The notes below the pieces were generated by a model, which had not been told where the DNA came from, did no database searches, and was given only the letters and a program-made list of their open reading frames with translations. The position numbers were made by a program, and so were the translations under genes. Positions 4,972-62,905 of a stretch of 64,000 bases of DNA are shown piece after piece. The stretch is from an uncultured candidate division WWE3 bacterium (lineage in GTDB: Bacteria; Patescibacteriota; WWE3; UBA101185; UBA10185), in the NCBI GenBank assembly GCA_938004185.1, contig CALKWN010000065.1, forward strand, positions 90,371-154,370, read 5' to 3'. The first letter of the stretch is position 1, and every line of letters starts with the position of its first letter.

Positions 4972-5535
4972 ATGAAACTGCCCTGTTCCGTCTGTGCATA
5001 TAAAAAAGGTTTCACTTTGATAGAGTTGTTGTTGGTTATTGCAATTATCGCTACTGTTTCAGGTTTAGCAATTCCTACTTTCTCAAGATACACAAAAGAT
5101 CAAAGTTTAAAACAAGCTCAAGAAGTTTTGAAAAGCGAGTTGAGAAGTGTACAAAATAAGGCTTTAGTAGGAACGGGATCAGATAGTATGGATGCTTCGG
5201 GATCAAGAGCAATTGTAGCTTGGGGGGTATATACAAATCACGGTAGTGACGTGAGTGTGGTTGCGAATACAAAGTACAGGGTTTTTATGAGTTCTTATAC
5301 ATCTACAGGAAGCACGGGATGCACCGATGTTACTAGGCAAGCAGATATTCAAGTACTTGATTTGCCTCCAAATATAACCTTCACTAATACATCCTGCATA
5401 ATTTTCAGAATGGAAGACGGTAATGTTTCAAATATTTCTGAATCTTCTTCTATCGATGTAAATCTGGCCGGTCCGGGAGGCTCCACGAAGACGGTGAGGA
5501 TAACACACCCCGGTCTTATAAGGAGTTATAACTAG
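4972..5535 (+). CDS. prepilin-type pilin
   Basis: MKLPCSVCAYKKG|FTLIELLLVIAIIATVSGLAIP. The start was moved to the Met at 4972. Confidence 0.65.
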   Translation: MKLPCSVCAYKKGFTLIELLLVIAIIATVSGLAIPTFSRYTKDQSLKQAQEVLKSELRSVQNKALVGTGSDSMDASGSRAIVAWGVYTNHGSDVSVVANTKYRVFMSSYTSTGSTGCTDVTRQADIQVLDLPPNITFTNTSCIIFRMEDGNVSNISESSSIDVNLAGPGGSTKTVRITHPGLIRSYN

Positions 5536-43361: not shown

Positions 43362-43403
43362 TAAGTATTTTTTATCTAACGTGCATCTAATCTACATTGA
43401 GCA

Positions 43404-43464
43404 GTGGCGCTCTAAGTTCGCCTTCGGCGAAGTTTGCTGACGCAAAGTCAGCTGAGCTAACCGC
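43404..43464 (-). pseudogene. tRNA-Val 5-prime-part pseudo-copy interrupted by a 34-nt double-hairpin insertion
   Basis: GCGGTTAGCTCAGCTG and TTAGAGCGCCAC match tRNA-Val positions ~3-31. They are split by the insertion (GCTGAC-GCAAA-GTCAGC and TTCGCC-TTC-GGCGAA hairpins). No T-arm or 3-prime half. Confidence 0.4.
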
Positions 43465-43472
43465 TGTCAACG

Positions 43473-47038: not shown

Positions 47039-47059
47039 TGGTGGGCGAGAGAGGACTCG
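47039..47059 (-). repeat. 21-nt direct repeat of the tRNA-Leu(TAG) 3-prime end (T-loop C56 to CCA), att-like
   Basis: tggtgggcgagagaggactcg is identical at 47039-47059 and 47220-47240. Confidence 0.8.
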
Positions 47060-47162
47060 GTCACGTGTCTCAACATCTTGTAGTTCGCTAGCGCTCGCAC
47101 AATCTGTAAAGCTCGCGACCCCGTCTCCTTCGCTACGCTCAGTCCGACATTCTCGTCCTCTC

Positions 47163-47214
47163 TCAAAATAAAAAGTTCCCGCTAACCTTTCGTAAACTCA
47201 AGGCTAACGGGAAC
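47163..47214 (-). terminator. candidate intrinsic terminator downstream of tRNA-Leu(TAG)
   Basis: Minus-strand hairpin GTTCCCG...CGGGAAC with inner GCCUU/AAGGU pairing, followed by UUUUUAUUUU. Confidence 0.45.
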
Positions 47215-47219
47215 TTTCA

Positions 47220-47304
47220 TGGTGGGCGAGAGAGGACTCGAACCTCCAATCCTTTCGGAACACGGTTCTAAGCCGTGCGCGTATGCCAGTTCCGCCACTC
47301 GCCC
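47220..47304 (-). tRNA. tRNA-Leu (anticodon TAG), type II with long variable arm, CCA encoded
   Basis: Manual fold: GGGCGAG acceptor, CACGG-CTTAGAA-CCGTG anticodon arm, long variable arm, GGAGG-TTCGAGT-CCTCT T-arm. Confidence 0.85.
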
Positions 47305-47379
47305 ATGTAACTCTATTTTCTTATTTGTTTTTAAATCTGCTTTTTTCGTCCGCACGTCTTACGCCCTGTCGGTCCAAAA

Positions 47380-47413
47380 CCGTGCGCGTATGCCAGTTCC
47401 GCCACTCGCCCAT
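47380..47413 (-). repeat. 34-nt duplicate of the tRNA-Leu(TAG) 5-prime half (positions 1-31 plus 3 nt upstream)
   Basis: ccgtgcgcgtatgccagttccgccactcgcccatg matches exactly, located 76 bp on the 5-prime side of the intact gene. Confidence 0.75.
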
Positions 47414-47520
47414 GCAACTACCCCCTCACTCAAGCGCTAACATATTATACCAACAGAACACTCAACTTCTAGCAAAAAGAAAGGGCGGTTATTAAACCGC
47501 CCTTCCCCACTAATATTCAA

Positions 47521-62135: not shown

Positions 62136-62221
62136 TGGTGGGCGAGAAGGGAGTCGAACCCTTATATCCTTGCGGACAAAAGATTTTAAGTCTTTCGTGT
62201 ATACCATTCCACCACTCGCCC
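62136..62221 (-). tRNA. tRNA-Leu (anticodon TAA), type II, CCA encoded
   Basis: Manual fold: GGGCGAG acceptor, AAAGA-CTTAAAA-TCTTT anticodon arm, long variable arm, AAGGG-TTCGACT-CCCTT T-arm. Confidence 0.85.
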
Positions 62222-62241: not shown

Positions 62242-62266
62242 TATCTGGCGCCCCCGGAGGGAGTCG
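62242..62266 (-). repeat. 25-nt direct repeat of the tRNA-Arg(TCT) 3-prime end (T-loop to CCA plus 3-4 nt), att-like
   Basis: tatctggcgcccccggagggagtcg is identical at 62242-62266 and 62356-62380. Confidence 0.8.
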
Positions 62267-62359
62267 GTCACCGGTTCGCGCCTGCTGACGCGCCCGTCGA
62301 CCCCGGCTCGGCACCGTCGTGCCTACGCCGTTCGACTCTGAAAAATACCTAACAATATC

Positions 62360-62435
62360 TGGCGCCCCCGGAGGGAGTCGAACCCCCAACCTCTTCCTTA
62401 GAAGGGAATTGCTCTATCCTTTGAGCTACGAGGGC
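62360..62435 (-). tRNA. tRNA-Arg (anticodon TCT), CCA encoded
   Basis: Manual fold: GCCCTCG acceptor, (A)TTCC-CTTCTAA-GGAAG anticodon arm with one mismatch, GGGGG-TTCGACT-CCCTC T-arm. Confidence 0.8.
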
Positions 62436-62566
62436 ATAGCAAGTGTATTTATACCATTTAAAGGCCGAATCGCTCAATAATTAGTAGGGGCGGTTTGTGA
62501 ACATGCCCGTTTCCTCACCCCCTCCCACTACCCCACCCCGCCTAGACCGTCCCCAACCACAGTGCT

Positions 62567-62905
62567 ATGATTAATCACATGGTCGAACAAATAACAGCAA
62601 TAATCAAACCTTTTCTCGATCCCTGGATAATCTTCGGATTTGCCGCCCAGTTCGTGTTTTTTCTAAGATTTGCCGTGCAGTGGTGGGTATCGGAAAAAAA
62701 GAAGGAAAGTGTAATTCCGGTGGCTTTTTGGTACCTAAGCCTTGTAGGTACTTTCATGATTCTTATCTATTCAATAAAAAGACAGGATATCGTTTTTATC
62801 GCGGCTTCGGTGCTAAATTCAATGATTTATATCAGAAATTTGGTTCTCATTTACAATAAAAAGAAGAGATCGGAACAGAGTTCGGGCGAAAATACTACAT
62901 TGTAG
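62567..62905 (+). CDS. lipid-A-disaccharide synthase N-terminal domain (LAB_N) small membrane protein
   Basis: IIFGFAAQFVFFLRFAVQWWVSEKKKESVIPVAFWYLSLVGTFMILIYSIKRQDIVFI...IYIRNL matches the LAB_N pattern. Confidence 0.55.
   Translation: MINHMVEQITAIIKPFLDPWIIFGFAAQFVFFLRFAVQWWVSEKKKESVIPVAFWYLSLVGTFMILIYSIKRQDIVFIAASVLNSMIYIRNLVLIYNKKKRSEQSSGENTTL

Follow-up and report, generated by a model that had tools for sequence, protein, structure and literature searches.

What has placed a short, very GC-rich segment between a tRNA gene and a second copy of that gene's own 3' end, and whether it is a foreign insert or a part of the tRNA operon, are the questions raised by the tRNA-Arg(TCT) locus near one end of the window, i.e., the whole 64-kb stretch of DNA that was analysed. 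A sequence-only reading of the locus had described an exact 25-nt direct repeat flanking a GC-rich segment of about 90 bp and had suggested a foreign-looking insert brought by an integrase with a matching attP. The parts of the locus are the following, all on the minus strand.

62360..62435, minus strand: intact tRNA-Arg(TCT) with encoded CCA, the host gene of the element (ARAGORN; Rfam tRNA model, 63.5 bits)
62356..62380, minus strand: proximal copy of the 25-nt repeat, consisting of tRNA positions C56-A76 and the 4-nt trailer GATA (100% identical)
62341..62355, minus strand: AT-rich 15-nt spacer, TTGTTAGGTATTTTT in the tRNA sense, with neither a hairpin nor a predicted terminator (from the sequence)
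62267..62340, minus strand: GC-rich 74-nt module folding as a three-way junction (MFE fold, covariation, covariance model R1)
62242..62266, minus strand: distal copy of the tRNA-Arg 3' end, C56-CCA plus GATA (repeat identity)
62136..62221, minus strand: tRNA-Leu(TAA), whose 3' end is an empty site in the window strain (ARAGORN; sister-strain contigs)

The repeat, TATCTGGCGCCCCCGGAGGGAGTCG, is exact as had been claimed (25/25 nt, at 62242-62266 and 62356-62380), and its two copies are separated by 89 bp, that is, the 15-nt spacer and the 74-nt module. The GC content of the module is 73% against a window average of 41%, which bears out the description of a GC-rich segment, and the 60-nt segment with the highest GC content in the 64 kb (80%) falls within it. 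Read in the tRNA sense, the order is tRNA-Arg(TCT), GATA, spacer, module, C56-A76 with GATA, and tRNA-Leu(TAA), the distal repeat ending 24 nt upstream of the latter gene. The window has six tRNA genes, each of them on the minus strand and with an encoded CCA (ARAGORN, Rfam tRNA model), and no promoter or terminator was predicted between tRNA-Arg, the module and tRNA-Leu. On the other side of the gene, about 45 nt upstream of tRNA-Arg and between it and a gene with a LAB_N domain, there is another GC-rich segment (62483-62567; 85 nt, 68% GC, G-rich on the minus strand), which is kept with few changes in a sister strain (L003, 2000-2085).

A second member of the same family is found downstream of tRNA-Leu(TAG) (47220-47304) and is composed as follows.

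47039..47219, minus strand: the Leu(TAG) unit as a whole (repeats, fold, R1)
47167-47219, minus strand: terminator-like hairpin with a T-run (inverted repeats)
47060-47166, minus strand: long-P3 module with the GAGAA variant of the arm (fold z -3.05; R1, 35.8 bits)
47039-47059, minus strand: 21-nt copy of the tRNA-Leu(TAG) 3' end (exact repeat, partner at 47220-47240)

The tRNA-Leu(TAG) repeat is identical over 21/21 nt. Both the Arg and the Leu(TAG) repeats begin at C56 of the T-loop and abut GTCAC on the plus strand, as the sequence-only reading had noted; the junction, marked here by a slash, reads ...GAsTCG/GTCAC on the plus strand and GTGAC/CGAsTCC in the tRNA sense. In a scan of the window, GASTCGGTCAC occurs exactly only at these two sites, and with one mismatch at 4 sites against 0.77 expected. 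An alignment of the two inserts had been proposed as a check, and the two proved to be related. A plain alignment brings out the common blocks GAGnCGGGGTCG and GTGAC adjoining the tRNA piece, and the Leu(TAG) copy is recognised at 35.8 bits (E 5e-8) by the covariance model R1, which was built from A2, an alignment of 33 short-type units that does not include this copy. Across the window R1 finds exactly two copies, Arg and Leu(TAG), and nothing else; the Arg unit, a member of the training alignment, scores 96.8 bits over 62246-62344. The Leu(TAG) unit is of the long-P3 subtype, which is also seen in loci L054, L061, L076, L077, L120 and L139.

Two further tRNA fragments lie on the minus strand of the window, both upstream of a tRNA gene. 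The one upstream of tRNA-Leu(TAG) (47340-47419) repeats the 8-nt leader and tRNA-Leu positions 1-42 over 50 nt at 92% identity, its anticodon loop reading TTTTGGA where the gene has CTTAGAA; behind it come a GC-rich stretch and an A-run. This pseudo-copy of the 5' side has a period of 107 nt and is distinct from the 3' unit. A split tRNA made of this 5' fragment and the 3' fragment was considered and rejected, as the two have about 6 nt of complementarity by eye and positions 44-55 are missing. The other, upstream of tRNA-Val(GAC) (43400-43470), is a 5' fragment of tRNA-Val (acceptor, D-arm and the start of the anticodon stem) with its D-loop split by a 33-nt insert, which forms two hairpins and has GCGTCAGCA in common with the Arg module.

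The alignment A2 supports a three-way junction on the tRNA-sense strand, formed by helices P1, P2 and P3. P1 pairs the 5' arm of the module with positions 57-64 of the copied tRNA end; in the Arg unit 62333-62338 pairs with 62261-62266, and the inverted piece of the T-loop (CGACTC) remarked upon earlier at 62333-62338 is one side of this conserved helix. Likewise, the GGCAC-GACG-GTGCC hairpin pointed out at 62310-62323 is the conserved helix P2, which is closed by a covarying N1:N2 pair (in A2, CG 16, GC 10, UA 5, AU 1, and one non-pair). P3 extends from the invariant GGGGUCG as far as GUGACC and includes C56, which closes the helix. Paired cells amount to 86.8% in A2 versus 69% in shuffles, and the covariation score is 0.469 versus 0.134 in shuffled alignments and at most 0.092 with slid partners. 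An independent RNAalifold prediction contains P2a and all of P3 and counts 11 covarying pairs. Several junction and loop bases, namely GAA, GAG and the P3 loop CAGCAG, are invariant.

Only the tRNA-sense strand folds better than shuffled sequence. The MFE z scores of three units are -1.7, -2.2 and -3.05 in the sense and +0.14, -0.84 and -0.62 in the antisense direction, the values of the Arg unit being -1.7 and +0.14, respectively. There is an invariant G-U pair, and the number of GU versus AC pairs (67 versus 24) points to the same strand. The GC richness of the module is explained by its conserved helices with covariation and not by a foreign composition; hence, of the earlier description as GC-rich and foreign-looking, the first part holds and the second does not.

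The 5' arm complements the T-loop and T-stem that are copied from its own tRNA. The match is specific to that tRNA at positions 59 and 63-65, weakly specific at 66-70 and unspecific at 71-76. Two forms of the arm occur, a fully complementary one (..TCGAA) and one that has a tandem G-A variant (..GAGAA), and where the T-loop is of the CAA type the arm is changed in a compensating way.

The family extends well beyond the window. A pattern of the form CGGGGTCG-N24-54-GTGACCGANTCC-N11-CCA, scanned across one genome per species, gave at least 118 stretches in the species-representative genomes. Among the matches listed, most belong to Patescibacteria (Saccharibacteria, Paceibacteria, WWE3, Berkelbacteria, Peregrinibacteria, Gracilibacteria and others) and a minority are labelled Elusimicrobia, Burkholderiales, Bdellovibrionales or Deltaproteobacteria, while the few actinobacterial matches among those listed are due to chance. 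A same-strand tRNA is located within 260 nt upstream (mostly 45-130 nt) in 85 of the 124 matches listed, and the host tRNAs among them include Ala, Arg, Asp, Cys, Gln, Glu, Gly, His, Ile, Leu, Lys, Met, Pro, Ser, Trp, Tyr and Val. The module is followed by a tRNA 3' end from T-loop C56 in every listed match; usually it is the upstream tRNA's own, and about half of the matches listed have an exact 21-nt copy upstream. Tandem pairs are found in L047, L060, L065 and L101 and three units in L077, the window units being single, and at 11 loci or more another same-strand tRNA comes shortly after the unit. The spacer of most relatives carries a terminator-like hairpin, unlike the Arg spacer.

Searches of Rfam 15, including its self-cleaving ribozymes and riboswitches, with all three units, at gathering and E-value thresholds, returned nothing above chance, and a search of viral contigs with the motif freed of the CCA requirement gave 12 matches, all of them chance matches in GC-rich phage contigs. 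The family is large, strongly covarying and without a match among Rfam 15 families, and it resides mainly in the ultra-small CPR bacteria. The suggestion of a recurrent event specific to tRNA 3' ends is upheld by two homologous copies in the window, more than 100 others in other genomes and a third copy in sister strains.

Some loci depart from the common form. In L034 and L036 the distal fragment differs from the adjacent tRNA by 6 and 9 mismatches, which suggests that the neighbouring gene was rearranged or replaced; the L034 fragment may have come from another tRNA-Arg. In L186 (2686-2780) a tRNA-Ala is followed by a 63-nt spacer ending in the hairpin CCCCGTTGAATAACGGGG and by the tRNA 3' end from C56, with no module between them, so the C56 boundary is not exclusive to units with the R1 core.

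The third copy came from sister-strain contigs, which were chosen by an identical neighbouring methyltransferase; four are 100% and six are 96.4-99.3% identical to the window. The latter six carry a unit of 149 bp behind tRNA-Leu(TAA), where the repeat in L003 is identical over 21/21 nt, and the site is empty in the window and in the contigs identical to it. Units are therefore present or absent among close strains. The Leu(TAA) module closely resembles the Arg module, and the differences between them compensate each other in two hairpins (GGCAC/GUGCC in Arg versus GGCGU/ACGCC, and C-G versus U-A at a closing pair). Since all six of the more divergent contigs have the unit, the polymorphism is most simply read as a loss in the lineage of the window, and recombination between the 21-nt repeats would delete a unit cleanly. 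Similar units occur further afield. For example, a Nomurabacteria genome (L102) has a unit resembling an orthologue of the Leu(TAA) element with a similar spacer, and WWE3 RAAC2 (L125) has a counterpart of the Arg unit in the same synteny, Arg(TCT) with its unit and then Leu(TAA). Several of the short-read Logan contigs L005-L010 stop, or are wrongly joined, right at the repeated tRNA 3' end, L010 joining unrelated sequence at GCCCACCA; the tRNA 3'-end repeats are the cause of such assembly breaks at tRNA loci.

The closest known parallel in architecture is the tRNA-linked repeat (TLR) of E. coli, which is also named RtT RNA (Rfam RF00391). TLRs were first described in E. coli in 1978, their origin is unexplained, and most members are without a known function (PMC8144298). 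Their hallmark is a location in tRNA or rRNA operons and a terminal stretch of 18-19 nt equal to the 3' end of the upstream RNA, and strain K-12 has ten loci with one to five copies each, 22 in all (PMC8144298). At the E. coli tyrT locus each RtT repeat of 178 bp consists of a spacer, GGGGAAGGAU-GAGAA, a GC-rich core and AAUCCUUCCCCCACCACCA, the last 19 nt of tRNA-Tyr, and in the consensus structure of Rfam RF00391 the 5' arm pairs with the copied T-stem. The likeness to the units described here is extensive. Both lie directly downstream of a tRNA within the same operon and in the same orientation, the window unit being placed between tRNA-Arg and tRNA-Leu; in both the tail copies the 3' end of the upstream tRNA (18-19 nt in E. 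coli (PMC8144298), 21-25 nt here); both form tandem arrays and have a GC-rich structured core; and in both the arm forms pairs with the T-stem copy and has, in one of its variants, GAUGAGAA after it. The differences are that the copy begins at A58 in RtT and at C56 here, that the core fold is another one, and that the hosts are gamma-proteobacterial families there and CPR bacteria with some other phyla here.

Homology to the E. coli RtT was sought in both directions and not detected. RF00391 scored 18.6 bits (E 0.47) on the Leu(TAG) unit (47039-47177), against a gathering score of 45 and 134-138 bits for genuine RtT repeats, and had no match on the Arg unit; R1, in turn, had no match to the E. 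coli RtT repeats. Hence 'TLR-type' states an architecture and not a descent.

Other known elements resemble the unit in part. 3'ETS-leuZ, an sRNA from a tRNA trailer, and the RNAs RrA, RrB and RrF, the latter encoded downstream of 5S rRNA, act by binding Hfq, CsrA or other sRNAs (PMC8144298). Like the unit, they occupy the 3' trailer of a stable-RNA operon (PMC8144298), but their sequences are unrelated to it. MITEs and REP/BIME elements are also short, structured, multi-copy, strain-polymorphic and without a gene of their own; the unit, in contrast, is tied strictly to tRNA 3' ends in one orientation, and its arms match the individual target instead of being fixed terminal repeats.

The unit is composed of a spacer, a structured module of about 75 nt and the host tRNA 3' end from C56 to CCA, directly after the gene and in the same orientation, and the family has every architectural feature of a TLR. 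On balance the feature is probably, and with moderate confidence, one copy of a TLR-type element that is co-transcribed with tRNAs and is copied and lost at tRNA 3' ends. Lying inside the tRNA-Arg/tRNA-Leu operon, the unit would be transcribed with the tRNAs, and the enzymes that process tRNA ends may cut it out as an RNA of about 100 nt, to which the tRNA-like CCA tail would give a defined 3' end. This would parallel E. coli, where the repeated end of TLRs has been proposed as a processing signal and where three TLRs downstream of 5S rRNA are made when transcription runs past a first terminator, processed, and bound to Hfq and CsrA (PMC8144298). For example, the rrnB RNA arises from transcription that continues past a first terminator and has its 3' end set by the repeat of the upstream RNA's end (PMC8144298). 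As the unit sits in a tRNA operon with no predicted promoter or terminator beside it, the most likely product is an RNA of about 100 nt that would be released by processing and would end in a tRNA-like tail. At Leu(TAG) and in many relatives a strong terminator-like hairpin stands between tRNA and module, so that transcription of the module would need read-through.

New copies of such a TLR-type element would be formed by duplicative recombination or copying at tRNA 3' ends, with flanks corresponding to target positions 56-76, and an existing copy would disappear when its two direct repeats recombine. With regard to the distal copy, a target duplication and a tRNA end borne by the element would look alike. 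A bolder, tentative and rather doubtful proposal is that the module is a programmable tRNA-specific RNA whose arm reads the cognate T-arm and whose single-stranded tail mimics the acceptor 3' strand with NCCA. In this proposal the molecule would have the form of a natural external guide sequence, and the RNA might steer its own copying to tRNA 3' ends or might act in trans on the cognate tRNA or its processing enzymes.

A related alternative is an active, non-autonomous element guided by base pairing, in which the arm recognises the T-arm of the tRNA gene or of the tRNA and a trans-acting enzyme inserts the unit, with a target duplication of 18-25 nt from C56 to the 3' end. The target specificity of the arm, its compensation in step with CAA-type T-loops, and the occurrence of the family at nearly all tRNA types would fit. 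Evidence of recent copying comes from L097, where two different tRNA-Ser genes, separated by 1 kb, have a unit of 131 nt (spacer, arm and core) that is 100% identical between them; positions 56-74 of the respective tRNA flank each copy, and the arm suits just one of these tRNAs. The pair is explained either by a new insertion with target duplication or by gene conversion between two older units, and gene conversion could thus account for it. Besides, no candidate enzyme was found, units resembling orthologues persist across the named lineages, the sole polymorphism looks like a loss, and the module-less unit of L186 has the same C56 boundary. We regard this alternative as unlikely.

Similarly improbable, and the closest to the original suggestion, is that an island mobilised by an integrase left the unit behind as a scar or gave rise to it as a miniature derivative; the proximal tRNA end with the terminator would then be the P' side, the module the P arm and the distal fragment the displaced native end. 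An identity block from C56 is typical of T-loop-type integration, and the block of the unit starts there. Most spacers give the tRNA a terminator, and the unit, like an integrase-borne island, is bounded on both sides by the directly repeated tRNA 3' end, with the intact gene on one side, the fragment on the other and the boundary in the T-loop. The layout of a regenerated gene plus a displaced fragment is also left by integrases, and it corresponds to the 'regenerated target and displaced fragment' that has been reported for tRNA islands (PMC4383910). In addition, the module lies kilobases away from the tRNA, with mobile-element genes in between, in L058, L092, L079, L080 and L096. The unit differs, however, from islands and prophages at tRNA genes in being 90-180 bp long, without a recombinase and with an RNA-like conserved structure; in none of the 85 listed short units are the regenerated tRNA and the displaced fragment separated by a recombinase gene. 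The covariation of the helices on one strand is unexpected for protein-binding DNA, and the identical unit flanked by two different tRNA repeats in L097 likewise speaks against a scar.

The islands present in the same tRNAs have ends that are separate from those of the unit. In L058 and L092 the order is tRNA, recombinase, cargo and module, with 2.9 and 4.4 kb between tRNA and module; the recombinase encoded in this interval is a large serine recombinase, which contains Resolvase, Recombinase and Zn-ribbon domains. Homologues of this recombinase were collected from 80 metagenomic loci; at about 48 of these the gene abuts or overlaps the 3' end of a convergent tRNA, and a search of all 80 (730 kb) found no module. 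The right end of the serine-recombinase element is conserved, CTTGAAATTGTCAAAG ... GTTCGAAC.ATTT.AAGAATAG.CACCA, and shares only its last 5-7 nt with the tRNA, which would place the crossover at the CCA end. In L058, L086 and L092 this right end is upstream of the unit's spacer, so the element was inserted between the tRNA and a pre-existing unit. With 80 module-less homologous loci and a right end of its own (...ACCA) upstream of the spacer, the serine-recombinase element of L058 and L092 was rejected as a vehicle of the module. The same applies to the tyrosine integrase of L079, which together with a CI-like repressor precedes the module: the attR core of this prophage lies upstream of the unit, three homologous prophages are without the module, and in one of these, L226, the matching site is seen empty. 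The module has no recombinase tied to it, and the serine-recombinase elements and the prophage are separate insertions; the idea of a foreign insert from an integrase with a matching attP is thus abandoned.

The large-serine-recombinase elements may merit a description of their own. One scan gave 575 relatives, and the elements were seen in L142-L221, L058, L092, L025, L102, L115 and L132. The stop codon of the recombinase gene abuts or overlaps the 3' end of convergent tRNAs of many identities, and the conserved right end closes with the same 5-7 nt as the tRNA (...ACCA); serine recombinases targeting generic tRNA 3' ends seem unusual. In L092 a stretch of about 190 bp occurs twice in inverted orientation (~2480-2860 and ~4990-5180) on either side of a cargo of HTH, cytidine deaminase-like and GrpB genes inside the element, and the ORFs covering the two inverted copies have a 54-residue peptide in common.

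Finally, that the distal fragment is a retro-copy, made by reverse transcription of a mature CCA-tailed tRNA, is very improbable: in 31 listed loci the fragment has a CCA and the tRNA gene does not encode one, but this excess was rejected as an ascertainment artefact of a search pattern that demanded CCA, since 4 of 5 fragments from CCA-less genes found without that requirement end in CAA, CTA or CAC, the 5' arm contains no complement of CCA, and the Arg repeat of the window runs 4 nt past the CCA into the genomic trailer.

The TLR-type reading has several implications. Repeats of tRNA 3' ends in CPR genomes are not automatically integrase scars and should be interpreted with caution, and the same repeats explain assembly breaks at tRNA loci. 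The units probably represent a new and widespread class of structured RNA outside the families of Rfam 15, and their many natural variants may indicate which parts matter. If the programmable-RNA proposal were true, many tRNA species of CPR bacteria would each have a dedicated companion RNA. The TLR architecture is now seen in a much larger family, in Patescibacteria and some other phyla, that has no detectable homology to RtT, which suggests a solution that is general, possibly ancient, and not a peculiarity of enterobacteria.
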